Assembly (NCBI GenBank): GCA_965218425.1
Contig: OZ244621.1
Coordinates: 4,160,001 to 4,224,000, forward strand
Source of the DNA: an uncultured Candidatus Binatia bacterium
GTDB lineage: Bacteria > Desulfobacterota > Binatia > UBA9968 > CAXXLF01
Direction of reading: 5' to 3'
Length of the DNA stretch: 64,000 nt
Below the pieces are notes generated by a model that did not search any database, was not told the DNA's origin, and saw nothing but the letters and a program-made list of their open reading frames with translations. Of the stretch, positions 701 to 61,345 are shown in pieces. Numbering within the stretch: position 1 is the stretch's first letter; each line of letters opens with the position of its first letter. Both the position numbers and the translations under genes were made by a program.

Positions 701-792
701 CTAACACTTGCTCTCCTCGCCTAACACTTAACACCGCTCCTTCTCTCCCCTACCCCGAATACCCTATTCCCTATCGCTGGTCTTATCGCTTT
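701..792 (+). repeat. Mosaic pyrimidine-rich spacer (AACAC, CCCTA and GGTCTTATCGCTTT modules)
   Basis: CTAACACTTAACAC...CCCTACCCCGAATACCCTATTCCCTA...GGTCTTATCGCTTT. Same module order as 11341-11425 and 34980-35068. Confidence 0.8.
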
Positions 793-819
793 CTATAGAT
801 TTTCGCCCGCGAATTTGCC

Positions 820-848
820 TTGACAGTCACCTAAAATTCCAATAAAGG
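820..848 (+). promoter_or_regulatory. Putative sigma70 promoter for the ABC SBP gene
   Basis: TTGACA-N17-TAAAGG. Confidence 0.45.
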
Positions 849-1061
849 CATTACCCTGATCTAGCTGCCGGGCCTCGCTCCATTGTTAAAGCTACCTGCG
901 CCATTGGGAGGCCCAAACACAGGGTCGCGGAGCGGCCCTTGGAGGGGAGCAATGAACGGATACGATTCAAGCCAGGGCTCTGGTTTATTTTATTGCCAGG
1001 GTGTGCTGGCTTTTTTATTGCCTTTGAATCAAACGGTATAGAAAAAGGGAGGTAACAGGCT

Positions 1062-2615
1062 ATGAAGCGATTTTTCACGTACATTTCCATGGTAGGTTTA
1101 TTGATTGGCCTCACATACGTGTCGGCAAGGGCAGCGGATGAGCCCAAGCGCGGGGGCACTCTCACCATGGCCATCAGCAATAAGATGAAGATGATGAATC
1201 CTCTGGTAAGAACCAGTTCGGTGGAAAAGAGAATCCGCGATTTGATGTTCGAGTCGCTTCTGGTACTGGATTCAAAGGGCAAGGTACAGCCCAATCTGGC
1301 CGAGTCCTGGCAGATCTCCCAGGACGGCAAGACCTATACCTTTAGGCTCCGCAGGGGCGTGAAGTTTCACAACGGACAAGAAATGACGGCGGAAGACGCC
1401 AAATTCGCCATGGATTACACGATGAACCCCAAAAACGGTGCTTATGGGATTAAGGATCTAAACCAGGTGGAAGGGGTCGAAGCAGTGGACCGATATACCT
1501 TGAAGGTGTATTTAAAGAGGCCCACCCCGGTATTTCCCATCCTTCTGTCAGAGATTAGGTCCTTCTCGGTTATTCCCAAAGGATCGTTGGAGGAGAGCGT
1601 GAGGAAGCCTGTCACATTCCCACCGGGGACGGGACCTTTTAAGTTCGTGGAGTGGAAACCAGGACGTCAAATCGTTTTCGACCGGTTCGACGATTACTGG
1701 GGCCACAAGGCTTACGTGGATCGGGTCATTCTGAAGGTGATCGGAAATTCCACCGTGCGCTTCACTGCACTTCGGGCCGGGGATGTGGACGTCATCGTAC
1801 GTGTTCCCCATGAATGGATCAATACGGTGGAGCAAGGTAAAATCAAAGGGATTGGCTTCGCGGGGTCCTTTCCCGGGAATGCCAACAATATTGAGTTCAA
1901 CGTAGCGGATCCCCCTTTTAACAATAAAAAACTGCGCTTGGCCGTTGCCCATGCCCTGAATCGAAAAGAGATACTTCAAGGTGCATATTTTGGTATGGGT
2001 TCGATTGCGCGCCAGCGTTTTCCAAAAGATCACTACTGGTACTTTGAGGAGGCGCCTATCCCTTCCTACGACCTTGCCAAGGCTCGGGCGTTGGTAAAGG
2101 AATCCGGTTACAAAGGAGAAGAGGTTGATCTTATGATCAGTCGAGGTAACCCGGGGTATGAGGCCGAGGCCACCATCATTCAATCACAGCTGAAGAAGAT
2201 CGGCGTAAAGATGAAAATAACCCCATTGGAAAGAGCGTCCGCCCTGGATTACCGGCGCAAAGGCAAATTTCACTTCAAGCTGAGTGGTGGCAGCGCCTAT
2301 GCAGACCCCATACAGGCTTACAACGAGTACGAGTGCGAAGATCTCAGAAAGCGGCGGTCCAATGAGGCGGGTTACTGTGACAAAGAGTTTGATCGACTGC
2401 TGGCGAAAGCGGAGACGGAGCGGGATCCTGCCAAGAGGAGGGAATTGTTCAAGAAGCTGGTTCAGATGCTTAACAAAGAGATACCTCTTCTCCCCATTTT
2501 ATTCGCTACAAGGCATTTTGCATTTCGAGATTATGTGAAAGGCTTCACCACCGATGAAAACGCTCATTACCGTCACTATGGTGGAGGGTTGAACTACACC
2601 TGGATCGACAAGTAA
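1062..2615 (+). CDS. ABC transporter substrate-binding protein, family 5 (peptide/nickel type), orphan
   Basis: Signal peptide, LAESW..S.DGKTYTF.LR.GVKFHNG motif, GTGPFKFVEW, SD GGGAGG. Confidence 0.92.
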   Translation: MKRFFTYISMVGLLIGLTYVSARAADEPKRGGTLTMAISNKMKMMNPLVRTSSVEKRIRDLMFESLLVLDSKGKVQPNLAESWQISQDGKTYTFRLRRGVKFHNGQEMTAEDAKFAMDYTMNPKNGAYGIKDLNQVEGVEAVDRYTLKVYLKRPTPVFPILLSEIRSFSVIPKGSLEESVRKPVTFPPGTGPFKFVEWKPGRQIVFDRFDDYWGHKAYVDRVILKVIGNSTVRFTALRAGDVDVIVRVPHEWINTVEQGKIKGIGFAGSFPGNANNIEFNVADPPFNNKKLRLAVAHALNRKEILQGAYFGMGSIARQRFPKDHYWYFEEAPIPSYDLAKARALVKESGYKGEEVDLMISRGNPGYEAEATIIQSQLKKIGVKMKITPLERASALDYRRKGKFHFKLSGGSAYADPIQAYNEYECEDLRKRRSNEAGYCDKEFDRLLAKAETERDPAKRRELFKKLVQMLNKEIPLLPILFATRHFAFRDYVKGFTTDENAHYRHYGGGLNYTWIDK

Positions 2616-2675
2616 CCTGACAAATTAGAACGTAACATCTTCAAGTGCCCCCCATGGCAAAAGCGACAAACAAGA

Positions 2676-2719
2676 CCCAGGAGAGCGAAAAGGCGTTGGA
2701 ACCTTTTCGCTCTCCTGGG
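2676..2719. terminator. Perfect 18-bp hairpin, probable terminator
   Basis: CCCAGGAGAGCGAAAAGG-N8-CCTTTTCGCTCTCCTGGG, 60 nt downstream of the SBP stop. Confidence 0.65.
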
Positions 2720-2767
2720 AAAATCGTCGTTAGATCCTCAATCGTAACAAAGAAGGAGCGACGGTTT

Positions 2768-2974
2768 ATGAATAACCCAACTATTCGTCGTCTTATGGCA
2801 ATCCTAAAATCGATTCCTCTATTGGCACGAAGCTGGAAGGTGCGGGAAAGTGAATTCATGCGGCGAAACCCAGAGACCGCGTGCTCCATGGAAGCTTTCC
2901 TGCAGCTGAAGCCCAGGTATAGGGAGGACTGGTTTAGATTGGAGACGAGATGGATGGGCGGAGAAATGGACTGA
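2768..2974 (+). CDS. Small hypothetical protein (68 aa)
   Basis: AAGGAG SD before ATG (MNNPTIRR...). No recognisable motif. Confidence 0.35.
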   Translation: MNNPTIRRLMAILKSIPLLARSWKVRESEFMRRNPETACSMEAFLQLKPRYREDWFRLETRWMGGEMD

Positions 2975-3219
2975 AAGGACCTTTGACGATCACGTTGCCG
3001 GTTCGGCAGCGCATTAAATGGCATCTCCTCCCCGCTAATAGAGCCCGTCGAAACACGTTCCATTCACCCGTCGATTCCAAGTTCATGTTTTGCACCATGG
3101 CGAACAGATTCAACATAAAGTTCTCAAATTGATTCTCACGAAACGCTTCCTCTGAAGAGAGAATTACCAATTTTCGAACAGTTAGTATCTGTGTAATTTT
3201 TGCTCGTCATTAACGTATT

Positions 3220-3628
3220 ATGAAAAAGAAAATACTCATTGTCGGAGACGACCTGGCCCTCTCCCACGTCCTGGATATGCCCATCAAGAATTCCTATGAA
3301 ATTGTCCCGGCGAAAAACGGCAAAGAGGGTGTGGACATGGCCGCCTCGCAACTTCCAGATTTGATCCTCGTGGACATCAGGATGCCCGTGATGGACGGGT
3401 TACAAGCGCTCACATTATTCAAAGAGGATGACCTAACTGCGGCGATTCCTGTAATCTTCCGGTCGGGCAAAGTCGAGTCACGATATACCACAGGGTTTCA
3501 GAATGGGTGCGGGCCACTATATCACGAAGCCATTTACCAGCACTGAACTGCTAAGTGGAATCGATCTATTCCTGGCAGAAGACGAACCCATGGAATCGTC
3601 GATCCCGCATCATTTATTATCCGCCTAA
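3220..3628 (+). pseudogene. Stand-alone response regulator receiver domain, frameshifted near 3481
   Basis: KKILIV..D, PDLILVDIRMPVMDG. The C-terminal GAGHYITKPF continues in another frame to TAA at 3628. Confidence 0.8.
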
Positions 3629-3666
3629 CTCAACTCTCTCTACTCCCGATTTTACTTACCGTGCTA

Positions 3667-3799
3667 GCCTTTTCGCCTTTCGCTTTGCTCTCCGCTTCCT
3701 AGCAGTATGTAATCCTGGAGCAATTGATCTCTGACTTGCTGCCTTCCGCTCACTGTCTGCTGTCTTTCTCCCCCTGCCCCGTGCGCTATGCGCCTCGCC
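3667..3799 (+). repeat. Mosaic pyrimidine-rich spacer
   Basis: GCCTTTTCGCCTTTCGCTTT, GCCTTCCGCTCACTGTCTGCTGTCT and GTGCGCTATGCGCC modules. Confidence 0.65.
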
Positions 3800-3806
3800 G
3801 CGATCA

Positions 3807-4370
3807 TCAGGCTTCACCACTCTGGGGTACGAATTTTAGTACCACACCGTTGTTGCACCAACGGTCCCCCGTGGGCCGCGGTCCGTCACCGAAAATATGG
3901 CCGTGGTGGCCGCCGCAGCGTATGCAATGGTATTCGGTACGAGGCCAGATAAGCTTGTAATCCGTGCTAGTGCCGAAGACACCGGGTATGGTGGTAAAGA
4001 AACTAGGCCAACCTGTGCCACTGTCATATTTCATCTTGGAGGTAAAAAGCGGCAAATCGCACCCTGCGCATGCGTAAATTCCGGGGCGCTTTTCATCGTT
4101 CAGGGCACTCGACCAGGGACGTTCTGTCCCCTCCTCACGCAGAATATAAAATTGGGTTGGGTCAAGGCGCTCACGCCACCGCTCCTTTGACAACTGGAGC
4201 GGTTCGGATGCCAGCGGAACCTTTACATCTTTTCCAAGAAATTTCTTCCAATTCTTCTGGAGCTCTTCAATCCCATTCATTGAAGAAGGTGGAGCTGCAA
4301 CCCCCCGGCCCCAAATGCCACTCCAGATACCCAACGCAAGCAACCCACGCAAAAATCCACGTCGTGTCAT
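3807..4370 (-). CDS. msrB: Peptide-methionine (R)-S-oxide reductase with Tat signal peptide
   Basis: GTERPW, CAGC, KYDSGTGWPSF, C..CGGHHGHIF.DGP.PTG.RWCNNG. N-terminal TRRGFL twin-arginine motif. Confidence 0.95.
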   Translation of the reverse strand: MTRRGFLRGLLALGIWSGIWGRGVAAPPSSMNGIEELQKNWKKFLGKDVKVPLASEPLQLSKERWRERLDPTQFYILREEGTERPWSSALNDEKRPGIYACAGCDLPLFTSKMKYDSGTGWPSFFTTIPGVFGTSTDYKLIWPRTEYHCIRCGGHHGHIFGDGPRPTGDRWCNNGVVLKFVPQSGEA

Positions 4371-4489
4371 CAGCAGTCTCCTTTCCTTTTCGTAACATTC
4401 ACTGGCCTTCCAGGGACCATAGTATCAAACCAGATTGGCATATGATACATAGCCAGTTTCCCTTTTTCCAAAGCCGCATTTCGCACGGT

Positions 4490-4677
4490 CCTCTGCCTGC
4501 TGTCTTTCCTGGACTACGCTTTTGCCTTTTTGTTCTTACCCTGCTCCCGTCAATTTTCTATCCTCCATCCTGAACCCCAACTGGCTGAGAGCTAAAAGCT
4601 GACGGCTGATAGCGATCCTCACTCAGCACTCGTTACTCAGCTTTGAACTGCCGCTTTCTGCCCACTGCCTGCTGTCT
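4490..4677 (+). repeat. Mosaic spacer (CTGCC, TTTTGCC, CTATCCT, GCTGAGA/GCTGATA, CTCAGCA/CTCGTTA modules) overlapping a gene 3' end
   Basis: 4584-4638 aligns ungapped with 12708-12762 at 45/55 positions. Confidence 0.88.
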
Positions 4678-5767: not shown

Positions 5768-5850
5768 GGATATACCCTCCCTTTTGATAACCGCTCGATG
5801 GCGGAAGCGGTCGAGCGAGAACGCTTCCTGGCCGGGATCAGAACCGAATC

Positions 5851-5888
5851 ATCTTATGCCGATTTATCCCGGCTTGTCAATTTCCAGA
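5851..5888 (-). promoter_or_regulatory. Sigma70-type promoter carrying the shared TCTGGAAATTGACA motif
   Basis: Minus strand TCTGGAAA-TTGACA-N18-TAAGAT. Same 14-mer at 52627 and 56277. Confidence 0.7.
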
Positions 5889-6041
5889 GCTAGTGCCCAG
5901 GTCACTTATGAAATTACAAATCTGTACGCACAATTTACGTGGATGCCGATGGGGGGCATTTTGACAATTATTTGCCCTGAAGGAATTGCCCCTTAGATTC
6001 CTGGGCAGGAAAATTTCTTTGGAGTCCAAACAGTTATAGTC

Positions 6042-6057: not shown

Positions 6058-6084
6058 AACCTATGATTCGAGGGAGGAAAAATA

Positions 6085-6207: not shown

Positions 6208-6256
6208 TTTCCGTCCGTCTGCCGTCAATTCTCTATCTTCAATCCTCTATTTTTTC
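6208..6256 (+). repeat. Spacer module CAATTCTCTATCTTCAATCCTC overlapping the MFS stop codon
   Basis: Homologous to 18643-18681 (TTCCCGTCCGCACGCTGCAATTCTCTATCTTCTATCCTC). Confidence 0.75.
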
Positions 6257-11329: not shown

Positions 11330-11425
11330 TTCTGTGCCTTGCCTCTTTCTCTCTGCCTCAACACTTAACACCGTTTCTCCCCTCTTCCACGCCCTATCCC
11401 CTAATCCTATCGCTTTGCGCCATGG
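11330..11425 (+). repeat. Mosaic spacer (AACAC, CCCTA and TATCGCTTTGCGCC modules)
   Basis: GCCTCTTTCTCTCTGCCTCAACACTTAACACC...CCCTATCCCCTAATCCTATCGCTTTGCGCC. Homologous to 34980-35068. Confidence 0.85.
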
Positions 11426-12645: not shown

Positions 12646-12768
12646 CGCTCTCCTCTCAGTCTCCTATCAATCCTCTATCCTCGACTCTCGCCTCTCGGTC
12701 CTACCTAGCTGAGAGCTGAAAGCTAATAACTGATAGCTATCCCTACTCAGTCCTCGTTACTCGTACTG
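12646..12768 (+). repeat. Mosaic spacer (CTATCCT, GCTGAGA and CTCGTTA modules)
   Basis: TCAATCCTCTATCCTCGA...GCTGAGAGCTGAAAGCTAATAACTGATAGC...ACTCAGTCCTCGTTACTC. Homolog of 4550-4638. Confidence 0.88.
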
Positions 12769-14309: not shown

Positions 14310-14590
14310 GTAGTTCCGTGGTTTGCGGTCCCCAATTGGTTGCCTTCTGCCCATTGCCTGCTCTCTTTCTTTGTGCCTGTAGTCTGTTGTCAGTACTCCG
14401 AGACTTGTCTGCGCCCAATGCCCTTTACCCCCTGCTCCCTATCATCGAAACTCAACTCCCTAGTCGTAGAACTTTACGCCACGCGCTTTGCTTCTTATCC
14501 CAGGCAATCGTCGATCTTCAATCCTCTATCCTAGATTTTCATTCCTTGTGCCTCAGCACTCAGTCCTGAACGCGCTTTGCTCTTTGCGTT
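14310..14590 (+). repeat. Long mosaic spacer
   Basis: TGCCTTCTGCCCATTGCCTGCT, CTGTAGTCTGTTGTCAGT and CGATCTTCAATCCTCTATCCT modules. 14539-14564 matches 34207-34232 at 25/26. Confidence 0.85.
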
Positions 14591-17350: not shown

Positions 17351-18553
17351 TCACTTTTTCTTACGCAGAATCTTTGCCAGCTGCCGCGCCAACTTGCGCA
17401 TCTCCGGGTGTTTGGCAACAAAGTCAGCGTCAATTTCTAACATTTCAACGCCTTTCGCTTTCAGGCCTTTCAGCTCCGCCACGGATTGCGACCCGGGCAT
17501 TAAATAATGGTCCGTATCGTAGCTTTCGTAAACAACCCTTTGACCTGCTTCGCTCATGGCCATGTTGATGAACAGCTTTGCTAGGTTCGGATACGCCGAG
17601 TTTCTTGGTAATCCCCAGTAGAAGAAAGAAACCGTGGCCCCGTCCTCTAGGATCACATGCCCAAGCGGCGCACCCTTTGCCCGCTGTTGCCGGACTGCGT
17701 AACTGCCGCAGCCCATGACCATCATGGTGAATTCGCCGCTGGCGATGCGGGAGAGCTCTCCACAACGAATAAGCCCAGCAACATAGGGCGAGAGCTTGCC
17801 CACAAAAGCCTTCATTTTCTCTGGGCTCCAAGTGGAGACAAAAGCAATGTTGTACAACTGCGCGGCAAAGGGTGTTGAGGCGATCTTCCCCTTCCACTTC
17901 GCTTGGAGCACATCCTCAAGTTTCCTAGGCGCTTCGGCAGCGGAAACAAGATTGGTGTTGTATACGACACCCGAGACGAACGTAGCCACCTCTACACCAA
18001 TACTAATGGAAGGAACGAATTTTTTTGTGATGCGCGGCGAGAGCCTAGTAAAATCATAATTTTCCAGCACATCCTTTTTCAGCAGTCGTCCAAAGTGAAT
18101 TTCGGTGCCCAGGAGGATATCCGTTGAGACCGCCTGACCGGCCGCTACTTCTTGGGTGACCTGAGCGACCATCTTGGACATCCTGGGGGCCGGGGTGAAA
18201 TTGACCTTTATGTTCATGTCATACATTCGATTAAAAAGATCTTGGAATAACTTGGCCCCCCTCGCCCCGCCAAAGGACTGCTGGCCCCAGCTCAGATTGA
18301 GCTCGCGCTCGCCCTTGTCGTTGGCAGCTGCAATTAGCCGTTTGACCTCTGTGGAATGCGCGATCCTCGCCGTTCTGTGGGCGGCGGCTAATCTAATCCC
18401 AGAGGGCATTTCTTGATCTCTAGCCCTTCGAACACCATCATTCAGTGCGCCGGCATGCAAACCATAGGGCCACAACCCTGCCAGCGCCAACAGGGTAGCG
18501 ATCCACAATCCATAGAAAAAATTTTTATTCATGCGTGTGCACCCTTCTCTCAT
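17351..18553 (-). CDS. Extracellular solute-binding protein (ABC SBP), orphan
   Basis: Signal peptide (start may be the second Met), YNTNLV...EAP..LEDVL..KWKGKI, PNLAKLFIN...SEAGQ. Confidence 0.87.
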   Translation of the reverse strand: MREGCTRMNKNFFYGLWIATLLALAGLWPYGLHAGALNDGVRRARDQEMPSGIRLAAAHRTARIAHSTEVKRLIAAANDKGERELNLSWGQQSFGGARGAKLFQDLFNRMYDMNIKVNFTPAPRMSKMVAQVTQEVAAGQAVSTDILLGTEIHFGRLLKKDVLENYDFTRLSPRITKKFVPSISIGVEVATFVSGVVYNTNLVSAAEAPRKLEDVLQAKWKGKIASTPFAAQLYNIAFVSTWSPEKMKAFVGKLSPYVAGLIRCGELSRIASGEFTMMVMGCGSYAVRQQRAKGAPLGHVILEDGATVSFFYWGLPRNSAYPNLAKLFINMAMSEAGQRVVYESYDTDHYLMPGSQSVAELKGLKAKGVEMLEIDADFVAKHPEMRKLARQLAKILRKKK

Positions 18554-18639
18554 CTGATTCGTGGGTTCAGTGACATCCTATGGTAGGTTCTCAGTCCATG
18601 TCAACAACCCAGACGGCAACTATGCGACAACAATCCATC

Positions 18640-18730
18640 CCCTTCCCGTCCGCACGCTGCAATTCTCTATCTTCTATCCTCGGTTCTCCCCCTGACTTCC
18701 CAACCCCCTACACTCTATTCCCTTCGCCAT
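18640..18730 (+). repeat. Mosaic spacer (CTATCCT and CCCTA modules)
   Basis: CAATTCTCTATCTTCTATCCTCGG...CCCAACCCCCTACACTCTATTCCCT. Confidence 0.75.
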
Positions 18731-19082
18731 GAGACCACAACATCCCGACCGCTGCCATGAGAATTATTCTTGAGACCACCGTCAAGGCTACCTAACCGAC
18801 TGTAACATGGCTTTCCAACTTCGACACAGCGCTCAGAGAGCCAGTAATCAAGCAGGACTTCTCAGCCTTTTCGAGCGGCCGATATCCCTTCTCCTTGTCC
18901 TGTGACTCGGGTAACTGCAAGTCTGCTCGGATCAGCATTTCTGCAAAACAGGTAACCCCATCCACCTTTTGAGCAATGGAAGTTGTGATTCTTCTTAGAT
19001 AAAGACCTTAACGGCTCCCACTCGTTAGGGAACGAAACTTGCTTCCCGTGGTGTCGGGTAACGTCCACGTTAGAAGGCAACC

Positions 19083-19349
19083 ATGCCAAACAAGACAGTG
19101 AGAGATGTAATGGACAATAAACCGGTAACTCTGCAACACCTTGACACCCTCGACCTGGCCAAAGACACCATGGAACTGAAGCATATTCGGCACTTTCCGG
19201 TAGTAGAAAAGGAAAATCCGGTCGGCGTGGTTAGTCAGCGGGACCTATATCGGGTTTCGTTGGGCTCGGGGATGCGACTCGACGAAATCACGCAAAAGGA
19301 GTTTCCTAAGACCGTTGCTGCCAAGGACGTCATGAGCCATCCCGTATAG
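19083..19349 (+). pseudogene. CBS-domain protein truncated at the start of the second CBS domain
   Basis: VRDVM...VTL...IRHFPVV....VGVVSQRDL...KDVMSHPV, then stop. Confidence 0.75.
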
Positions 19350-19415
19350 CTCTTTGCCCTCCGCACTAAGCACGATGCTCCATGCCGACGTATCCATCTT
19401 GCAATGGACCGCCTA

Positions 19416-20589: not shown

Positions 20590-20804
20590 CTTCTCCCATC
20601 TTTCCTTTATTTCCAATTTTCGATCCTTGCCTATCCGTTCTGAGGGGGCTTTGACTCTTGCTCTCTTCCCTTAACACGTAACACGGCCTTCCTTGTTTGA
20701 CTTTCGCCTTTTTCCTTTAAACTTTTTACCTCTTTCCGCTCTGCCTGTTGCCATTTGCTTGCTGTCTTTCTCGTTCTCCGCGTTTACCCTTTGCCTGCTA
20801 ATTT
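20590..20804 (+). repeat. Mosaic spacer (AACAC, TTTTGCC and CTGCC modules)
   Basis: CCCTTAACACGTAACAC, TTTCGCCTTTTTCCTTTAAACTTTT, CTGCCTGTTGCCATTTGCTTGCTGTCT. Confidence 0.75.
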
Positions 20805-21383: not shown

Positions 21384-21397
21384 GCTTCAGTCCAAGA

Positions 21398-21424
21398 GCG
21401 TTAAGTGTTAAGCGTTAGGGGAGG
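21398..21424 (-). repeat. Inverted copy of the AACAC heptamer module
   Basis: GCGTTAAGTGTTAAGCGTTAGGGGAGG is the reverse complement of CCTCCCCTAACGCTTAACACTTAACGC. Confidence 0.8.
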
Positions 21425-21469: not shown

Positions 21470-21566
21470 ACACGTAACACTCAACACTGATTTTACTTTG
21501 CCTTTTACGCTTTGTGCCGTCCTGTCCGTCTTTTGCCTTTTTTTCTAACTTTTCACTTTTCTCTTT
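21470..21566 (+). repeat. Mosaic spacer (AACAC and TTTTGCC modules)
   Basis: ACACGTAACACTCAACACT, TTTTGCCTTTTTTTCTAACTTTTCACTTTT. Confidence 0.75.
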
Positions 21567-24182: not shown

Positions 24183-24281
24183 TTGCGTTTCGCTTTCTGC
24201 GCACCGCTTGCCGTTTTGCTTTTTCCCGTAGTCACGTTGTCAGCGGTTTGTGACTTGCCGCTTACTGCCTACTGCCTGCTC
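24183..24281 (+). repeat. Mosaic spacer (GTAGTC and CTGCCTA modules) overlapping the methyltransferase stop
   Basis: CCCGTAGTCACGTTGTCAGCGGT, GCTTACTGCCTACTGCCTGCT. Confidence 0.7.
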
Positions 24282-27671: not shown

Positions 27672-27862
27672 GCTTACTGCCAACACCCTGTTGCCTTTTT
27701 TCTCCCGGCGCATTGTGCCATGCGCTTTGCGTAGTCCTCTTGGTGTCTATCTGAGATTACTTTTCTCCTTTCCTTTTCTATGTTCGATCCTCTATCCTCC
27801 ATCCTTGATTCTACCCGCTCAGTCGTCAATCCTCGTTACTCAGCACTAAATGCTCTTTGCTT
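27672..27862 (+). repeat. Mosaic spacer between divergent Mo-enzyme genes
   Basis: GTGCCATGCGCTTTGC, CGATCCTCTATCCTCCATCCT, CCTCGTTACTCAGCACT. Ends just before TTGACA. Confidence 0.8.
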
Positions 27863-27964
27863 CCCGATTGACAGACACTAGAAACAAAGCTAGAGGAGAG
27901 TAATTGTGACCTGCAAACCTTGGTTCAACCCTAGGTGCCATGCCAACATGAAACTAACCAACCC

Positions 27965-28491
27965 ATGAAACCGGCCAACTTTCAATACTATGATCCCACG
28001 ACCATCGGGGAAGTAGTGGATCTGCTTTCCCAATTGGGTGACCAGGCTCGTCCCCTGGCGGGGGGACAGAGTCTCGTCCCCCTAATGAACTTTCGTCTCC
28101 TCAGGCCGGCGCATCTGATCGATCTCAACGGAGTGAGAGAACTCAGCTATTTGAGAGTGAGAAACGGTGAGCTGCGGATTGGCGCCATGACCCGCCAGCG
28201 TCAGCTAGAGCGCTCAACTGAGGTGGCAAGAAGTTTTGGGGGCACCACGGATTGCAATGCGGGTTTTGTACACCAGGAATCCTGTTGACAGCACAAGCTC
28301 TCCTCACGGAAAAGCCGGACCCAAGCGAGGAGGACATTCACCAGTGGATCAGCGGCAACCTGCGCCGCTGTACCGGTTATAAAAATATTGTGACCGCAAT
28401 CCGAGAAGCGGCAAAGGCCCTGGCGGCTGAACAACCGTCAGATCTTTGCGGGGTTAACACAGCAGATGGCATACATTGGCGCGAGAGTTAG
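27965..28491 (+). pseudogene. Deletion fusion of a CoxM-like FAD subunit (first ~90 aa) and a CoxS-like 2Fe-2S subunit (C-terminal half)
   Basis: MKPANFQY.DP...LAGGQSLVPLMNFRL.RP..LIDLN switches frame near 28232 into FWGHHGLQCGFCTPG...GNLRRCTGY. Confidence 0.85.
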
Positions 28492-34145: not shown

Positions 34146-34235
34146 GCTTTGCGCCATGTTCTGCAATCTCTGATCCCTACTCCTATTTATCCTCCAGCCT
34201 CGAATCTCATTCCTTGTGCCTCACCACTCAGTACC
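34146..34235 (+). repeat. Mosaic spacer between convergent genes
   Basis: GCTTTGCGCCATG...TATCCTCCAGCCTCGAATC-TCATTCCTTGTGCCTCACCACTCAGT. Confidence 0.82.
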
Positions 34236-34735: not shown

Positions 34736-35068
34736 TCCCTCTGCTTGTTGTTCATCTCGATTTACGTATTTTGCCTTTTTCCTTTTAACGTGTACTTTTT
34801 CTCATCTCATTCTCATCAATTCTCGATCCTTTATCCTCAATCTTCGGCTCGTTCCCCGAATTCTCTATCCCCTACTCCCTTGTTCTAGTCCTTTGCTCTT
34901 TTTTCCTTTGATTACGAGCACGAACACGTCCTTTCCCCTTGTCCATCGTCCCGTAGTCCAGCTGTCTTTCCCGCTCTATGCTTCTTTCCCTCTCTCCCTA
35001 ACACTCAACACTTAACACCTCTCCGCCTACACCCAACCCTCTAATCCCTGGTCTTATCACTTTGCGCC
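34736..35068 (+). repeat. Longest mosaic spacer, about 10 modules in series
   Basis: Contains CTGC, TTTTGCC, CGATCCT, CCCTA, ACGAGC/ACGAAC, GTAGTCC, AACAC and GGTCTTATCACTTTGCGCC modules. Confidence 0.9.
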
Positions 35069-36514
35069 CCTGTCAAGCCATCAAATAATCTAACCCTAGC
35101 CGGGTTCGTTGCGTCATGACAAAATCTAACCGAACTTCTGTGACATCTGTCGTTTTATCTCCTGTTGCTGGCCCTGCAGTTTCTTGCTAAACGTCCACTC
35201 CCTCCACGGCGTGTGTTTCAGAGGCGGCCTTTCCCGCGGTGCTCTGTCTGAATGGCTGGCCAGCTTGTAGAGCCCCTGAAGTTGCTCATCGATTCGGCCA
35301 CAGAGCTCAAAGGGATCGGTTGTCTTAAGCGTGTGACTGAGGGCTGCCAGCTTTTTGGGATCTCCCTTTCGGGACTCCACCACTCGCTCAAGGGGGCTAC
35401 GGGGCATGTCATAGCGGCGAATCAGTCGAGAGCCTTTACGGATTTTACATTGTAGCTTCATCGAGGGCTGGAACAGATTGTGGAAGATCCTAAGCTCATC
35501 ATAGAGTCGGTTGGTAACCTCTAAGGCCTTTGCCGTGTCGTAGCGGTCCCAGCCTATAAGCTTTCTGACATGGGTCCAGTTTTTCTGCTCGATGTGGGCG
35601 TTGTCGTCCTTTTTGTAGGGGCGTGAGCGGGTGAACTGGATGACGCGGCCAGATGGGCGTTGTTGACACAAGGTAAGAAGTTGGTTGTTGATGAACTCGC
35701 TGCCGTTGTCGGAGTCGATCCCCTTGAGGGGGAAAGGAAGTTGGTGTTCGATCTCGGTGACCGCATTCAAGATACCGAGGCTGCCCTTACCCATGACAGC
35801 CTTGCGCTGTACCCAGCAGGTGGTAATGTCCACGCAGTCCAGGCTATGAATAAACTCCCCAACCGCTGAGGCCCCTGAGTGTAACACCAGGTCAATCTCC
35901 AGATAGCCCGGAGTGTTCACGTCCCAATGATCGGTCTTGATGGGAATCATCTGCTTTAGCAGTGATCCGGGCCGGGTGGTGCCATAGACTCGCCGTTTCG
36001 CCCTGTGCTTGGTTGCCCTCAGGCGCCGATCCATCTGACGGGCACTGATAGCCAATAGCTGGATCTCTAACGGTTGGCTCAGCTCGAAGTGTTGCCTTAT
36101 CCAGGGCAGCCAGTGCACCAGGGCGGCCTTCAGACGTTGGGAGCACAGATACCCCGAGGCCTCCCACACCTTTGCCAAAATCCTTACCATCGCCTGACTG
36201 TATGCAGGCGAGCGAGATACACTTCGTTTGCGTACGGCTACTTCGGGCACAGGGCGGTTTAACAGCCAGATGGCATATTTACGGTTGTAGCCGCAAACCT
36301 TGCAGAATTGCTCCAGGATCATCCCCTTCTCCGCCCGTGGTGCGTGCTGGTAGCGGTCATAGATGGATCGTAAATACTCCCGCTTGGATCGTCGTGCCAT
36401 GATGAATCCTTCCATGGTTGCCCTCCTTGAGCCCTAAAATGAGCCCTTGGAGGGTTAGAATTACAAATGGCGCAACGAATGGTCTTAGGGTTAGATTATA
36501 CATGGCGCAATACG
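35069..36514 (-). mobile_element. Insertion sequence with DDE (rve-type) transposase and bipartite terminal inverted repeats
   Basis: Each end has two copies of a GCCAT-N4/5-AATCTAACC-like unit (35077-35131 and inverted 36452-36510). Candidate 5-bp target duplication GCGCC at 35064-35068 and 36515-36519. Exact ends are uncertain by a few bp. Confidence 0.85.
35126..36415 (-). CDS. DDE-type transposase (integrase core, ISNCY/IS481-like)
   Basis: GYLEIDLV.H, IDSDNGSEFIN, FTRSRPYKKDDNAHIEQKN. N-terminal HTH GYNRKYAI. Confidence 0.92.
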   Translation of the reverse strand: MEGFIMARRSKREYLRSIYDRYQHAPRAEKGMILEQFCKVCGYNRKYAIWLLNRPVPEVAVRKRSVSRSPAYSQAMVRILAKVWEASGYLCSQRLKAALVHWLPWIRQHFELSQPLEIQLLAISARQMDRRLRATKHRAKRRVYGTTRPGSLLKQMIPIKTDHWDVNTPGYLEIDLVLHSGASAVGEFIHSLDCVDITTCWVQRKAVMGKGSLGILNAVTEIEHQLPFPLKGIDSDNGSEFINNQLLTLCQQRPSGRVIQFTRSRPYKKDDNAHIEQKNWTHVRKLIGWDRYDTAKALEVTNRLYDELRIFHNLFQPSMKLQCKIRKGSRLIRRYDMPRSPLERVVESRKGDPKKLAALSHTLKTTDPFELCGRIDEQLQGLYKLASHSDRAPRERPPLKHTPWREWTFSKKLQGQQQEIKRQMSQKFG

Positions 36515-36548: not shown

Positions 36549-36599
36549 TGATCCGAAGTTGGCGCAGGGTCGGAGGACTCATTGAAGGGAGGGAACTCC

Positions 36600-37502
36600 A
36601 TGAGCATGAGACTCGTTTTGGAAACCACGGCTCCTTTCCAGGGGCTACCAGAATTGGTGGCTCATAAGGAGGGATTGTTCGCCGCCGAGGGGTTGGAGGT
36701 GGAGTTTGTCAAAAGAGGCGAGAACGCACCCACAAAGGTGGACCCCACCATCACAAGCCACACCGCCGCTAACGCGTTCGGGAGCCATGGAAGCAGTGCG
36801 GAGCAGGGGAAAGCGGCCATGTTCAACGCCTGCGAGTGGGGCAACTATTGCCGTGTGGAGCAGTCCTCTACTGGCGGCCGCCAGCTGGGCCGTCGAGCCA
36901 TCGTCACTTACGGTGCCATCGCAGTTGCGCCGGATTCCGATATTTATACGCCCCAACAGCTTGCGCACAAAACCGTGGGTGTGCCCTACTACGCCGGTAC
37001 TCACTACCTCGCAATGCTAATGTTGGAAGGGTTCCTCCCGCGGGAGGCAGTCAAGACCTGCCTTGCGCCCAACGGCGCCAAGCTTCGATTGGCTGCCCTG
37101 CTGAACGACGAAATGGACGCTACCACCATCACCGAGCCCTACATCACCGTCGCCGAGCGCAAGGGCTGCCGCATCGTTGTGGAGGCCCCCTATCACGGAA
37201 CCGAGGTGGCCAGTCCGTCGGTGGACGGAGCAACCTACGCTGCCTTCAACCGCGCCGTACGGGAAGCGGTTCATCGTATCAACACCAACAAGCGAAAGTA
37301 CCTCCAATATTTTATCGACCATCACAAGGCCGACCCAGACGTGGCGGCGCTCAACGTGGACGATTTGCGGCCTTCGCGGCTGATTGTCGTAGAGCCCGGC
37401 CCCATCCCAGAGGACGAGTTGCAGCGAACCTACGAGTGGATGCGTGGTTGGAATTTGCTGGGGGAGATGGACTGGCGGTCCCTGGTTGCCAATCGCCAGT
37501 AA
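36600..37502 (+). CDS. SsuA/THI5 (NMT1)-like substrate-binding-fold protein, no signal peptide
   Basis: LPELVA..EGLFAAEGLEVEF, SDIYTPQQLA.K.VGV, DATT..EPY...AE..G.R. Confidence 0.8.
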   Translation: MSMRLVLETTAPFQGLPELVAHKEGLFAAEGLEVEFVKRGENAPTKVDPTITSHTAANAFGSHGSSAEQGKAAMFNACEWGNYCRVEQSSTGGRQLGRRAIVTYGAIAVAPDSDIYTPQQLAHKTVGVPYYAGTHYLAMLMLEGFLPREAVKTCLAPNGAKLRLAALLNDEMDATTITEPYITVAERKGCRIVVEAPYHGTEVASPSVDGATYAAFNRAVREAVHRINTNKRKYLQYFIDHHKADPDVAALNVDDLRPSRLIVVEPGPIPEDELQRTYEWMRGWNLLGEMDWRSLVANRQ

Positions 37503-38323
37503 CACGTCTCCCGCAGCTCGGCTACCATCCACCCCGGTCATCAGAGGTGGAGATCAAAGACTTAACCATGGGCTCAATAATCATCTTGTTGGTGGCGTTG
37601 GTGTTGCCTTGTGCGGCTAATGCCACCGGACTCAAACGTTGTATAGACCGCAGGTAACAGCATCAGCAAGCCAAACTCAATGTCTTGAGGTCCGGCCGGC
37701 GGCCTGAGCGCATCGATAAAATGCATATGCCGCCCCTAGCGCAGGCGGTCCTCGAGATTTACAATGTGGCCTTTAGTCCGAAGTAGGCAAAGTTAGAAGT
37801 ATGGCCGGGTCCTCGAAAAGAGGCGTCCCTCTTTACTCAGTGGACTTCGCGGCGGCCACGCATCGAGCACGAAGTTTCAGATTACGCTACCCCATGAGCC
37901 CGGTAGGTAGTGTTGGGAGGTTAGCTTTAGACAGACCGACGATGGTCGTATGATCCCGGGGGAGCCAAAAAAGCTTTGTACCTTACTGAAAACAAAACCA
38001 ATAACCTGCTCTTCCGCAGAAGTGACCCCAAATCCTTCAGTACTAAATTGCTGCTGTCACTTCCATCTCCAACAGGCTTGTGTCCCCGGCAAATCCGTCC
38101 ACGAAGACGAATTCAAGCTGAGGCACTTCAGCTCTGTTCGCTTTCTTGAGAACCCCCTGGAGTGTCTCCAACCTCTGAGTGCGACTGAGATGCGAAAATT
38201 TATATATAGTTATACCCGGTTAAGGTGAGATCAAATGACTGGTCGTGCGGCCCACTATGCCAACGGCAGATTAAGCTTCAACCATTCCGCACAACCTTCC
38301 AGCTATAAAATATCTAAATCAAT

Positions 38324-39659: not shown

Positions 39660-39775
39660 ACTATCCCTCACCTTCCTCGCTTAAGACTTAACACTGTTGT
39701 CGCCGCCTTCTGCCCGTCTCCCTCCCTGCCCTCTGCTCCCTGGTTGTCAGTAGTCCTGTGGTCATCTGTTTGAAG
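39660..39775 (+). repeat. Mosaic spacer
   Basis: CTTAAGACTTAACACT, GCCTTCTGCCC, GTTGTCAGTAGTCCTGTGGTC. Confidence 0.7.
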
Positions 39776-56205: not shown

Positions 56206-56253
56206 GGCGTGCAACCTCCCTTCCGCCTGACAGAAACTCCTTGACGGGCAAGA

Positions 56254-56290
56254 ATTTTAAACCCGCAGGGCGCCCATGTCAATTTCCAGA
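56254..56290 (-). promoter_or_regulatory. Sigma70-type promoter carrying the shared TCTGGAAATTGACA motif
   Basis: Minus strand TCTGGAAA-TTGACA-N17-TAAAAT. Confidence 0.72.
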
Positions 56291-56500
56291 ACTAACAAAT
56301 TTGCCACTTGTGAAATCTCATGACTCGATTGTTGAATCAACCAAGCTTTCGTTTGTCAGCAAGGCGGTCCGTTCGAAAGCAAGAAAAAATAGATATTCAA
56401 ATTTGGCTTCAGAGACTACCCAACGAATTGCAAAAGGTGCGATTTTGACACCCACCCGGTTCCGTGATAGTCGTTGCTGATCCATTAACCTGGAATACCC

Positions 56501-57721: not shown

Positions 57722-57927
57722 ACCCATCTCACTGCTTTCCCTCCGCCCCCAACGAAACCGTGATTTATAAAATCTCTGAAGGGAACGTGTGGCTCGATAC
57801 CGAGTTGTGGGCATTTATGGCGATTGGTTGATGATAAAGTCTAAACACGGCAAGATGCCCGGCTTTATTAGAAAACAAGCCTCGCTTCCATAAGAAACCA
57901 GCTAACTATTCCTTTTGCGGACGGCTG

Positions 57928-58054
57928 CTCTCATCCCTCTTCCCTTGAAACTCAACACTCTTCTTGTCTTTTTCTAAACCCTATCCCCAACACCCTACTC
58001 CCTAGTCTTGACCCTTTCATCCTTTGATTACGATCCCGAACACGCCCCTCCCCT
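57928..58054 (+). repeat. Mosaic spacer (AACAC, CCCTA and ACGA modules)
   Basis: CCCTATCCCCAACACCCTACTCCCTAGTC. 58020-58044 matches 34904-34928 at 23/25. Confidence 0.82.
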
Positions 58055-58125
58055 GAGAGCGTGTGAGCAAATTGCTAGTATGCGGTATTGAAACAGCAGT
58101 TCCTTTACCGTCTGATTGTCTGAAT

Positions 58126-58152
58126 TTGACAAACGAGGTGTTTGTCTAATAT
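58126..58152 (+). promoter_or_regulatory. Promoter with overlapping palindromic operator candidate
   Basis: TTGACA overlapped by GACAAAC-N5-GTTTGTC, followed by TAATAT. Confidence 0.4.
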
Positions 58153-58176
58153 TTTCTTTCCAGGTTGGAGACGCTC

Positions 58177-59736
58177 ATGAGCCAGACTGATTCGGAGACT
58201 AGCAAGGTGAACTGGGACTACACTGCGGATGTCGTCGTGGTTGGGACGGGGGCGGCGGGCCTCCCGGCTGCCGTTATGGCACGGGATCTCGGGGTCAATG
58301 TAATCGCTGTTGAGGAGAACCATGATATCGGCGGTCACGGGATGTTAAGCGGTGGGAGACTCCCCCTTGGTGGCGGGACGAGTTTTCAAAAGAAGTATGG
58401 CATCGAGGATTCGGTGGACCAGGTCTTTTTAGACCACACGACTTACCTCAGCCTCCAAGCCAAGTACAGTGACAGAGACCTTGTAAGCGTTTGGGCCGAG
58501 GAAAATGTTCCGACGTTTGAGTTTCTGGTGGACAACGGTGTCAAGTTTGCTGATAATCCACCAATAATCGCACCGGACGAGACTGTTCCCAGACTAGCTG
58601 TGATCCGGCCTTACTCAGACAACCTCAACGAAACCATCAATGGCAGGAATGGCTCAGGCCTTGTCAGGCATCTGGAGGCCAGTGCCCGTGCAAAGGGCGT
58701 GCAGTTTCTACTGAGTCACAAGATGACCCGCATTATTAGAGAATGCGACATCACCGGAAGGGTGCTTGGAATCAGAGCAATCTACCAGGGAAAAGAGGTA
58801 AACATCCAGGCACGACGAGGCGTCATTATCGCTACGGGCGGTCATACCAGCAACGTGGAGTTTCGTAGAATGTTTGACCCTCGGCTGACCGAGGAGTACC
58901 AGACTGCCGGCGAACCCTGGTCCAAACAAACCGGTGACGGAGAGATACTGGCCATGGAAATTGGGGCATCCCTGTGGGGGACTGCCAACCAGACCACGGA
59001 GGGTGGACGAGCTGTTTCCAAAACAAAACACATCGGGTGCCGGTACGGTTATGTCAGCCTGAAGTGGAAGCCTGACAGCCCCATGTTCCATCTCGCCGGC
59101 GCCTCCGGCCTTACCGTAAACGATTGGCAAAACGTAATTCTTGTAAACCAGTTGGGCTTGAGATTCTGGGATGAGCTCGATGATTCATACGCGTTTCTAA
59201 ATGCTGCCCTGGGACTGAATGGGAATGAAACCAACGGGGGTGGACCCATATGGGCGATATTTGACGCAGGTACCGTACAGCGAGAGGGATGGAAACCAAA
59301 GCCGCCCGACATAGATCCCAACGGTTGGTTCTTCAATGCCGACACCATTACCGAGCTAGCCCACAGGATCGTCAACCCATACCAGAAACAGCCTATGCCG
59401 GCGCGCACCTTGGAAGAAACGGTGGCAAAGTACAACTCCTTCGTGGATGCGGGAGAGGATCCGGAGTTTGGCAGAACTCCTCCCCTGTATAAAATTCAGA
59501 CACCACCCTTCTACGCGGCGTGGTCCACACCCATACTCCATGACTCTCTGACTGGACTGAGAATTAACACCAAGTGCCAGGTAATTGACATGAAGGGTCA
59601 GGCCATCCCGGGCCTGTACTGCGCCGGGGAATCGGCGGGTGGATTCGCCTTGCACGGCCTGCCCAGATGCTGTGTCTTTGGCCGCATAGCGGGCAGGGAA
59701 GCTGCCCTTGCCCATGCAGAAAGACCACGACGGTGA
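58177..59736 (+). CDS. FAD-dependent oxidoreductase, fumarate reductase flavoprotein / ketosteroid dehydrogenase (FAD_binding_2) family
   Basis: DVVVVGTGAAG, GVIIATGG, TGDG...AM.IGA, GLRIN...QV....G..IPGLY.AGE.AGG. Confidence 0.9.
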   Translation: MSQTDSETSKVNWDYTADVVVVGTGAAGLPAAVMARDLGVNVIAVEENHDIGGHGMLSGGRLPLGGGTSFQKKYGIEDSVDQVFLDHTTYLSLQAKYSDRDLVSVWAEENVPTFEFLVDNGVKFADNPPIIAPDETVPRLAVIRPYSDNLNETINGRNGSGLVRHLEASARAKGVQFLLSHKMTRIIRECDITGRVLGIRAIYQGKEVNIQARRGVIIATGGHTSNVEFRRMFDPRLTEEYQTAGEPWSKQTGDGEILAMEIGASLWGTANQTTEGGRAVSKTKHIGCRYGYVSLKWKPDSPMFHLAGASGLTVNDWQNVILVNQLGLRFWDELDDSYAFLNAALGLNGNETNGGGPIWAIFDAGTVQREGWKPKPPDIDPNGWFFNADTITELAHRIVNPYQKQPMPARTLEETVAKYNSFVDAGEDPEFGRTPPLYKIQTPPFYAAWSTPILHDSLTGLRINTKCQVIDMKGQAIPGLYCAGESAGGFALHGLPRCCVFGRIAGREAALAHAERPRR

Positions 59737-59740
59737 GGTT

Positions 59741-60856
59741 ATGGCAAAAAACGGTTCAAAGATCCTCGACAGTGATATGCATGTGTTTGAGCCCCCTGAC
59801 CTGTACTTGAAATACATGGATCCTAAATGGGGGGACCGCATCCCCAGGGCGGAGCCCAGGAAAAAGCACGGGGCGACCCGGTACAGGCTGGGGGATGGAA
59901 CACCCATCCGATCCCCCAGTCGTGCGGTTGTTTTCCATGAAGAGAAAAACGCCCACCGTTACGACAAACCCCTAAGTAGGAACTATGACCCGGCTTCCCA
60001 ACTCGACGCCATGGACGTGGAGGGCCTGGACGCGGCGGTACTATTCCGCACCTCCCCCTTACATACCGACGAGACCTTCGAGGCAGAGTACGCCAATGAC
60101 CTCTGTCGTGCTTGGAACAGTTGGATGAGCGACTTTTGTAAGGAAGATCCTAAAAGGCTCATGGGTTCAGCGTTGATTACTCTGCACGATGTAAACCTTG
60201 CCGTGGAGGAAGCGCGACGGGCGGTTAAGGAATTGGGCGCGGTGGGTTTGTCCCTGTGCCCGGAGCCCATCAACGGTAGGCAAATCCACGACTTCTACTT
60301 TGATCCGCTATGGGCGGAGGCAGAGCGGTTAGGAGTACCCATTTGTTTTCATCCACCCGCCAACCCCAACCAGCTTCAGGTCTCACAGCGTTTCAAAGGT
60401 CATCCCAATCAAGACCTTCTGGTCAATCCACTTCGCAACCCCGTTGAACTGATATTGGCCGTTAGCAGCTTCTGCGCCGGCGGAGTTCTAGAGCGGTTTC
60501 CCAAGATGAATGCGGCTTTTCTCGAAGGGAACTGTGCCTGGCTTCCCTGGCTGCTCTATCGCCTTGATGAATACTGGGAGATCCAGGGGGCCTTGGCCGA
60601 TGTACCGCTTTGCCAAAAGCCGAGCAAGTATTTCCACCAGCAGTGTTTCATTTCGGTGGATGTGGACGAAAGCCTGGTGGTGAAGGTCATTGATTATCTA
60701 GGCGACGACAATATCGTGTTCTCCACCGATTACCCGCACATCGACTCCTGCTGGCCCCACGCAGTGGATAATTTTATGTCTCTTCAGGGGATATCCGAGG
60801 AGTCCAGGCGAAAAATCCTGTGGGACAACTGCGCCAGGCTCTATAACCTTGCATAA
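59741..60856 (+). CDS. Amidohydrolase_2 family protein
   Basis: LDSDMHVFEP, ICFHP, FLEGNCAWLP, STDYPH.D. Paralog of 11428. Confidence 0.92.
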   Translation: MAKNGSKILDSDMHVFEPPDLYLKYMDPKWGDRIPRAEPRKKHGATRYRLGDGTPIRSPSRAVVFHEEKNAHRYDKPLSRNYDPASQLDAMDVEGLDAAVLFRTSPLHTDETFEAEYANDLCRAWNSWMSDFCKEDPKRLMGSALITLHDVNLAVEEARRAVKELGAVGLSLCPEPINGRQIHDFYFDPLWAEAERLGVPICFHPPANPNQLQVSQRFKGHPNQDLLVNPLRNPVELILAVSSFCAGGVLERFPKMNAAFLEGNCAWLPWLLYRLDEYWEIQGALADVPLCQKPSKYFHQQCFISVDVDESLVVKVIDYLGDDNIVFSTDYPHIDSCWPHAVDNFMSLQGISEESRRKILWDNCARLYNLA

Positions 60857-60976
60857 TCCTGTGGTTGTCTGCTACTAGTGCTTGACGGGTCTTTCCCATG
60901 TGATAGGGCTGCTTTCCAATAGCCTCCCCCAGCTTTGACAGGCTTGCAGTGATTTCTGAGGTCATAGAGGGGGAAA

Positions 60977-61223
60977 TGATTCTTCTACAAAAGGTCAGTC
61001 ATCCACGTGAATTTTATTCGCCAGGGTGTGCTGGCTTTGCAGTGGGACGCCTGAGCAGTCTTTTCGCGTGGACGTTACGGAGATGGGCAAGGTCCATGAA
61101 ACACAGATGCGCCGGCCGGGGGTTGAATACATGATGATCGTTCATGACCCGGAACTCCAGAAAAAGCGTCCCGAGGCAGAGAAATTCGTGGAGCAGCTTT
61201 ACAGCAAGCGCCAAGGCGGATAG
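60977..61223 (+). pseudogene. Possible decayed small (lipo)protein gene
   Basis: SD GAGGGGG plus ATG. PGCAGFAVG and TPEQSFRVDVTEMG... lie in different frames. Confidence 0.25.
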
Positions 61224-61254
61224 AGACATCCGCAGAATTATTGAGGAGTAATCG

Positions 61255-61345
61255 TAGTCCTATTGTCAGTGGTTCGTCGTCGGTTCCCCGTACGCTTTGC
61301 ACTCTGCGCCATGCGTTTTGCAGCTCTGCGTAAATCTGCGGTTAA
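61255..61345 (+). repeat. Mosaic spacer
   Basis: GTAGTCCTATTGTCAGTGGT, TACGCTTTGCACTCTGCGCCATGCG, TCTGCGTAAATCTGCGGTT. Confidence 0.7.

Follow-up and report, generated by a model that had tools for sequence, protein, structure and literature searches.

Introduction

Super-integrons are long arrays of single genes whose turnover depends on functions supplied in trans, with an age gradient running from the insertion point, toxin-antitoxin genes nearby and repeats that a group II intron uses as targets. CRISPR arrays show polarised acquisition beside a fixed point, with duplication of the repeat, and ISCR/IS91 elements, whose HUH enzyme of the Y2 type is encoded within the array, capture DNA from one end and accrete in complex class 1 integrons. 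Here, we propose that a stretch of 64,000 nucleotides from an uncultured Candidatus Binatia bacterium (GCA_965218425.1, contig OZ244621.1, positions 4,160,001 to 4,224,000; hereafter the window) is probably an old, outlying portion of one arm in an accessory-gene array whose two arms both grow from one slot at its centre. The window has pyrimidine-rich mosaic spacers (tracts) between its genes, which were first described by a model from the DNA letters alone (the original prediction); the TIRtron-type ends, the second arm and the centre discussed below are not visible from the window itself. We hold the centre-out growth of the array to be highly probable, and consider an HUH transposase to be a plausible driver of it, a step that we would rate just short of probable.

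Heptamer repeats are known from bacteria, STRR being one kind. According to the accessible text, the TAACTGA repeat of the Beggiatoaceae is another (PMC4679880). TIRtrons have GGGGWSAS ends and terminal inverted repeats (TIRs) that face inward around a transposase, TIRYT (Di Nocera et al. 2013, PMC3733652), which is the TnpA-Y1 subclass 2.1.2 of Quentin et al. (2018, 10.1101/279083); the accessible text proposes TIRYT activity at TIRs as future work and describes no gene array or polarity. For TnpA-REP, of subclass 2.1, a role in diversifying prochlorosin gene arrays was proposed, a causal claim that the authors withdrew, as the available text has it (10.1101/2020.03.09.984088). We found no description of a mirror, centre-out array in the accessible literature, a search that lay mostly outside subscription papers and supplements and in which only two papers named TIRYT. 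The array has so far been shown in one family and one unassigned metagenome contig, and its parts (TIRtron ends and repeat arms) are already known.

Results

A mirror array with one centre

The source genome (G000) is a single contig of 4.46 Mb, of which the window is 4.160-4.224 Mb. It was compared with genomes of the same genus (G001) and of another genus (G002), and with a metagenome contig (L262). Tracts were located with a 9-mer dictionary at a coverage threshold of 26, partly trained on the window tracts; in G000 the first dictionary found 115 tracts against 8 in reversed DNA, and a wider one 193 against 9. Tandem Repeats Finder detects almost no tracts, and exact heptamer doublets counted genome-wide were uninformative.

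In the window, 16 delimited tracts (pyrimidine fraction 0.60-0.79) were set against 200 dinucleotide shuffles. Identity at lag 7 reaches 0.432 versus 0.298 in the shuffles (z 14.5), with z 9.5 at lag 14 and 8.4 at lag 21. The alphabet is essentially heptameric, since lag 6 is not enriched (z -0.7), where modules of 6-7 nt had been predicted. Different tracts have 97 10-mers in common, where 11.9 +/- 4.4 are expected (highest of the shuffles: 26), and only 2 in antisense (0.64 +/- 1.3 expected), which places the shared alphabet beyond composition; the recurring blocks with conserved linkers (45/55, 25/26 and 23/25) were all reproduced exactly. Nineteen dictionary segments lie on the + strand and none on the - strand, at all four junction types (both tandem types, convergent and divergent) and independently of gene direction, as had been claimed. 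One divergent case, the 14345 tract, is scored as such only since the 148-aa gene to its left fell below the length filter. For six tract or head stretches, the predicted folding is no stronger than in shuffled sequence (z -0.94 to 0.76), in agreement with the view that the tracts are non-palindromic and not simple terminators.

This polarity reverses at one place. On contig C7 of G001 (1.08 Mb scanned), 40 of 41 tracts at 1.144-1.467 Mb are pyrimidine-rich on the + strand, and 23 of 24 at 1.470-1.535 Mb, a segment outside the dictionary's training, are reversed (p 3e-6). G002, which played no part in training, changes over at 1.492-1.496 Mb, with 7 of 9 tracts in the first sense before it and 19 of 22 in the opposite sense after it (Fisher p 0.0013), and this flip falls between orthologues of the genes that border the flip in G001. 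Arm A of G000 comprises 4.13-4.28 Mb and 0.18-0.24 Mb, divided at copies of one insertion sequence (IS); the G000 array was split by an IS-bounded rearrangement. The centre (~242.6-243.8 kb) and arm B (244-300 kb) are both outside the window, which itself appears, from its position, to be an outer, old section of the 4.13-4.28 Mb part of arm A. Misassembly of the G000 centre is unlikely, as contigs from four runs of two studies match it almost letter for letter. Those contigs, which drop rare variants, gave no convincing excision or circle joint at the centre, and the excised circles suggested by the original prediction did not appear. The array measures 130-400 kb.

Several identities for the centre were rejected. 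No tRNA was found in 13 loci around four centres and no integrase there, which leaves no tRNA-anchored genomic island. An origin or terminus at the array centre failed tests of skew and of consensus parS, dif and DnaA-box patterns. An ancient inverted duplication fails because only 4 of 75 arm-B proteins match arm A at >=60%, three of them IS copies, with no distance correlation. There is no conserved gene at the centre and, in the Rfam search on G001, no family but introns.

Age gradient and gene order

Synteny with the window is seen in G001, which has many more genes, and the window's orthologues sit 160-260 kb from its array centre. Genes with an orthologue in the G000 array make up 3 of 36 within 30 kb of the G001 centre versus 138 of 224 farther out (p 7e-10), a pooled test that omitted the arm-A bins at 30-100 kb (6/44). 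Gene content near the centre is lineage-specific; farther out it is common to the genomes and roughly colinear. All 41 orthologues shared by the G002 and G001 arrays lie on the same arm and 39 keep the same outward orientation, their distances from the centre correlate (rho 0.85), and their identity drops with distance (rho -0.50, p 9e-4). Neighbour order between these genomes is broken at 27 of 32 places in arm A, the control regions giving 18 of 91 and 0 of 52, and orientation is kept at 23 of the 27 versus 10 of 18 control breaks (p 0.04). Genes of arm A in G001 point both ways (146 - and 99 +). Spacer matches between arms are in the mirror sense in 520 of 609 cases, with best partners having comparable ranks when counted from the centre (rho 0.50, n 51), and recent low-copy duplicates in G000 peak in the 200-250 kb bin (12 of 102 matches), with none in 4.15-4.30 Mb.

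Young units near the centre

Near the G001 centre, tracts reach 300-600 nt and small genes, including toxin-antitoxin genes, are present. Young units begin sharply at GGGGTCAGG, GGGGACGTT or related ends and share a layout: a GGGGWSAS TIR, an arm-specific linker, stacked cassette arms, then one to few genes in either orientation. The stretches preceding the genes (heads) are direct repeats of 100-300 nt with 80-95% identity. TIR type varies before a constant core and similarity between units begins sharply at GGGG; end-specific cutting is therefore suggested. TIRs face outward rather than inward by 22 to 7 and 9 to 3 in G001, and by 8 to 2 in the long arm of G002. A 20-nt core of arm A occurs 14 times in all of G001, always within 1.395-1.467 Mb (the inner 73 kb of the arm) and on one strand; its single copy in G000 is at the inner broken end of arm A. 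Scanning metagenomes with this core gave six loci, five in the same head context. One of them, L262, is a further centre with five stacked arm-B TIRs and repeated heads, one AAA_14-DUF4143 gene and an arm-A head. The major facilitator superfamily (MFS) gene next to that arm-A head lies, at 90% identity, 52 kb from the centre in G001, a position that would agree with later insertion in G001 and equally with deletion in the L262 lineage. In both G001 and L262 the innermost TIRs form an outward-facing inverted pair around one gene.

GGGGWSAS ends of the TIRtron type occur at the heads near centres and at the ends of intact Y1 genes. Intact genes with the HUH and Y---NP motifs and a DnaA-C-like tail lie between TIRs at 1404080-1405048 and 2583264-2584241 in G000 and at 1761366-1762337 on C7 of G001; by their sequence these are TIRtrons, matching TIRYT as far as the accessible text describes it (PMC3733652, 10.1101/279083).

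Origin of the modules

The tract modules are best read, by sequence comparison, as the probable arms of cassettes carrying four-helix-bundle genes (PF05635; heptamers) and GxxExxY genes (PF13366; 9-11-mers). Inverted heptamer and 9-11-mer arms of the tract types flank 20 PF05635 and 12 PF13366 loci in five genomes (judged by eye), which bears out a link that the original prediction had drawn. Exact arm words differ between taxa, because dictionary coverage beat a reversed control only for the downstream arms of GxxExxY. As predicted, neither gene type was found among the 54 window proteins, where tract arms are unpaired; at genome scale the statement holds for GxxExxY alone, as G000 has two PF05635 genes outside the window, one with GCGCYWT arms (1432733), and no GxxExxY gene. 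Neither gene type was found among 90 proteins around the G001 centre.

Single modules are present in 15 of 301 genomes of the phylum and 15 of 121 of the class, mostly fragmented assemblies. A GxxExxY-type module has 0 or 1 copy in five complete or near-complete relatives, and in one further genome (G437) copies are scattered on both strands.

Discussion

How the array may grow

Under our proposal, the innermost pair of TIRs, facing outward around one gene, would amount to an inside-out TIRtron. A TIR-acting HUH (Y1) transposase of the TIRYT type, encoded elsewhere, would nick these central TIRs in trans, and one-ended or rolling-circle copying, or integration of a single-TIR circle, would duplicate the head and add DNA on the centre side of either arm. 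Older genes would be pushed outward in both directions as new ones enter, exchange between direct-repeat heads would reshuffle genes within an arm without inversion, and with distance TIRs would decay and heads would shrink by deletion to short mosaics such as those of the window. More tentatively, the whole could be an integrase-free, bidirectional gene-capture organ, in which the inside-out TIRtron pair is the slot, a domesticated HUH transposase loads foreign or chromosome-copied genes in trans, the order of acquisition is recorded in two mirror arms reaching up to several hundred kb and the stacked cassette arms are leftover recombination heads; we entertain this as possible rather than probable.

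A number of observations weigh against this proposal. In G000, the polarity of arm B holds for just 14 of 19 tracts (p 0.06), tracts at 175-243 kb are of both senses (2 + and 5 -), TIRs show no facing bias (3 / 4 and 3 / 3), the donor sites of gene fragments copied into the centre lack TIR boundaries, and TIR clusters exist elsewhere that are unaccompanied by a mirror heptamer array. Inward-facing TIRs make up about a quarter of those near the G001 centre. No Y1 gene lies within any array, the nearest in G001 being ~300 kb from the centre, and in G002 (97% complete) the sole copy is degenerate and has no second His. The GTAGTCC family is a downstream arm pointing outward in the two intact cassettes seen, so a simple rule of all left ends outward fails. 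A genome of another family (G434), with 63 copies of one module, has no such array in the 400 kb examined (3.0-3.4 Mb), and G000, G001 and G002 belong to one family and are hence non-independent. Finally, the original prediction read the spacers as possible junction or landing sites of cassette accretion in trans. Accretion holds up at the scale of the whole array, given the local polarity flip, the age gradient and the shuffling without inversion. Landing sites are not supported in the window arm: tracts occur at 12 of 34 gain/loss junctions and 11 of 35 conserved ones (p = 0.80), which gives no support to tracts as preferred breakpoints there, and the window tracts look like decayed relics rather than active landing sites.

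Alternative explanations

Could the same centre-out array be driven by host recombination? Head-bearing circles or fragments would enter the youngest, most similar heads through RecA or break repair, with TIRs, introns and ISs as passengers. The length and similarity of the directly repeated heads suit this, as do the central G000 fragments without TIR boundaries, the failure to find intact TIRYT in G002 and the fact that a group II intron and an IS merely target TIRs. We nevertheless regard it as unlikely, for homology alone gives no cause for two arms, and it does not account for the sharp GGGG start of unit similarity or the variable TIR before a constant core.

A second alternative, which we consider distinctly unlikely, is sorting by deletion. 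Random insertion of palindromic cassettes and TIR elements into a dispensable region would create units with a left end before a right end, which can be excised, so that all right ends followed by all left ends is the only stable layout; the mirror would then be the end state of loss, with no dedicated growth point. Outside the arrays, spacers with both senses have the purine arm first in 27 cases and the reverse order in none, as in gene-less palindromic cassettes; the array shows the one layout in which no such pair exists, and no enzyme gene was found at its centre, both of which deletion would explain. It would require end pairing across 100 kb, however, and predicts neither the orthologous flip in two genera, the age gradient and the 14 arm-specific direct-repeat cores nor the tandem heads stacked beside a central gene.

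Transcription signals under gene-by-gene selection (Rho rut sites, terminators or sites for RNA-binding proteins) are very improbable: many tracts are <=60 nt from a stop codon and some immediately 5' of TTGACA, but their orientation ignores gene direction and flips with chromosomal position, their content turns over at orthologous sites and they do not fold. A replichore-oriented protein-binding code of the KOPS or Chi type, which the original prediction had offered, is scarcely tenable and is refuted for G000, since tracts outside the arrays lack replichore bias (right 22 + / 32 -, left 47 + / 43 -) and the flip lies inside one replichore, distant from the parS-like sites (1.776-1.779 Mb) and skew extremes (1.82 and 3.82 Mb), for all that the purine strand of the window tracts is the leading strand, that G434 has a long same-strand run of one module and that skew is weaker on the right-hand arm in all three genomes. 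Modules occur throughout G000 and are unbiased outside its two array regions (69 + / 75 -); the longest same-strand run is 17 of 143 spacers, unmatched in 5000 permutations. The genome-wide strand map thus shows local flips and polarity domains of island scale, the outcome that the original prediction had tied to cassettes.

Comparison with described systems

The array that we propose resembles TIRtrons in its GGGGWSAS ends, in the Y1 HUH genes with a DnaA-C-like tail of G000 and G001, and in having solo, paired and clustered TIRs. Unlike TIRtrons as the accessible text describes them, its solo TIRs head gene units, face outward from one centre and carry arm-specific cores, and a Y1 gene between inward-facing TIRs is found in trans only. 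The intact Y1 genes, flanked by the same TIRs, lie elsewhere in G000 and G001 and are missing from the arrays, inside which there is also no match to PF00589 (tyrosine recombinase).

In its working the array would be like a super-integron, with growth polarised from one site, but on both sides, and with order shuffled without inversion. Many array genes, unlike those of super-integrons, have promoter-like sites, and the repeats are non-folding mosaics where integrons have attC hairpins, a comparison that rests on the folding of six tract/head stretches against shuffles, with no covariance model. Integron membership was rejected: IntI (TIGR02249) is over the cut-off in 0 of 5 family genomes, tracts fold like shuffles, genes run both ways and there are two arms. 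IntI-like pieces in G001 (C4) and G002 (C2, 0.38 Mb) are far from the arrays.

With IVS-type four-helix-bundle (PF05635/TIGR02436) and GxxExxY (PF13366) cassettes the array shares its module alphabet, and paired arms occur elsewhere in G000; in the array, by contrast, arms are single, unpaired, stacked and gene-less, with a polarity set by position over hundreds of kb. Accretion by ISCR/IS91 is similar in its presumed working (an HUH enzyme, one-ended uptake of neighbouring DNA, and end segments duplicated in the same orientation), but here the enzyme is not in the array, and ISCR growth is one-way over a few kb. CRISPR arrays differ in that our units are whole genes, the repeats are long degenerate mosaics and growth is bidirectional. 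The prochlorosin system involves the same transposase subclass; there, in the accessible text, transposase genes are interspersed with one gene family and no mirror array is described (10.1101/2020.03.09.984088).

If the proposal is true, as much as ~1/15 of these genomes arose at a single growth point and the place of a gene along its arm gives its date, so that the arms would preserve, in order, how an uncultured bacterial class acquired metabolic genes (amidohydrolases, binding proteins, oxygenases). The unstudied TIRYT subclass of HUH transposases would gain a role with a defined pair of substrates; TIR clusters, heptamer repeats and the arms of GxxExxY cassettes would be brought together, and a single-strand route to ordered gene stacking without an integron integrase would be suggested.

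Features of the window

Most units of the window contain one gene (amidohydrolases, solute-binding proteins, MFS transporters and oxidoreductases), and no intergenic TIR remains. Of the originally listed tracts, the one at 18640 is marginal and the one at 39660 a single weak module (Table 1). Three of ten orthologous spacers remain alignable in G001 and the others have different modules with the same polarity, a pattern that would fit long heads having decayed to different extents, or direct repeats having converted one another.

Table 1. Tracts and transposase of the window. For tracts, the strand is that of the purine-rich reading, directed away from the array centre.
Feature	Position	Strand	Remarks
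Mosaic tract, AACACT + CCCTAYT modules	707..792	-	++ junction; other modules and an IS here in G001
Mosaic tract, TTTCGCC, CTGCC..CTGTCTTTC, GCGCTAT modules	3665..3793	-	convergent junction
Mosaic tract, seven modules	4491..4677	-	overlaps 3' end of amidohydrolase open reading frame (ORF); remodelled in G001, polarity kept
Short CTATCYT tract	6222..6250	-	at MFS gene end
Mosaic tract	11347..11424	-	mostly kept in G001 (85% over 107 nt)
Mosaic tract, CTATCCT, CTGAnAG, CTCAGTC/CTCGTTA	12647..12763	-	modules differ in G001, GxxExxY-type
Long mosaic tract	14345..14588	-	5' of promoter-like TTGACA; 76% conserved in G001
Weak, decayed tract	18660..18730	-	marginal; dictionary coverage 23, under threshold 26
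Mosaic tract	20657..20799	-	dictionary scan
Mosaic tract	21475..21563	-	conserved in G001; preceded by lone opposite-sense AGYGTTA run, ~21397-21417 (surviving inverted pair)
Mosaic tract	24191..24268	-	convergent junction; 21 kb of additional genes here in G001
Mosaic tract	27672..27863	-	divergent junction; 5' of promoter-like TTGACA
Mosaic tract	34146..34234	-	convergent junction; dictionary scan
Longest window tract, ~300 nt	34773..35069	-	abuts IS end
Single weak AACACT-type module	39660..39700	-	missed by dictionary
Mosaic tract	57930..58033	-	++ junction; extra gene and different modules in G001
Mosaic tract incl. GxxExxY-type arm module	61252..61350	-	dictionary scan and arm comparison
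Passenger DDE transposase, 429 aa	35126..36415	-	no Pfam match, weak IS481/IS3-like matches; 5 near-identical copies in G000

The DDE transposase also occupies the orthologous site in G001. It was discarded as the cause of the tracts, since the three other G000 copies whose flanks were inspected have none; its upstream end is doubled in tandem in 2 of 4 G000 copies examined and 2 of 2 in G001. Truncated or frameshifted genes in the window (a receiver domain at 3220-3546, the FAD subunit of a molybdo-dehydrogenase at 27935-28288 and overlapping NMT1-like frames at 36582-37657) appear consistent with decay of old cargo.

Elements associated with TIRs and further observations

A group II intron has 16 copies in the 1.08 Mb of G001, all on one strand and at TIR-like sites, nine of them in the inner array. 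Across the whole of G001 (loci L052:8690-10720 and L160-L189) it has ~40 or more copies and a 765-nt ORF-less derivative; it starts GTATG and inserts within TIRtron-type ends, two bases before the terminal C run. By analogy with attC-targeting introns it appears to be TIR-targeting. As the cause of the array it was rejected, its copies being genome-wide, at TIR-like targets and not in G000 or G002. An IS encoding 487 aa sits directly inside TIR ends three times (G001 C7, 1415.9, 1429.5 and 1432.1 kb); both elements use TIRs as targets and are passengers. In G000, a gene-less element of ~430 bp that has TIR boundaries and two distinct types of end (669016-669443, 670244, 1193574 and ~40 more ends) clusters in islands at 0.66-0.73, 1.18-1.21, 1.56-1.58 and 1.93-1.95 Mb.

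An imperfect palindrome, ACGCAATTAA...TTAATTGCGT, is repeated between single genes in species-specific blocks (G001 C7, 1236-1257 and 1459-1461 kb) and is possibly another cassette site. A gene pair in inner arm A of G000 (224661-226611) is duplicated at 2766757-2768716; its translations resemble Cas2 and a fusion of Cas4 with Cas1, which the pair may encode.

Replication skew at fourfold sites is weaker on the physically right-hand arm (-0.024, -0.012 and -0.004, versus -0.054, -0.047 and -0.093 on the left), measured at 244-320 kb in G000, 1.47-1.58 Mb in G001 and 1.494-1.598 Mb in G002. In G000, a distance of ~1.8 Mb separates dnaA (18056-19354) from both the skew minimum and the parS-like sites, and G001 has two dnaA genes above the cut-off (C6 and C7). 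In G434, one heptamer module occupies eleven successive loci on the same strand over 0.7 Mb (C1, 2.48-3.20 Mb) without mosaic tracts. A possible second, older flip lies at 1.966-2.071 Mb in G000, where most tracts at 1966-1990 kb are on + and every one at 1997-2071 kb is on -. The G002 array is bordered by orthologues of this region.

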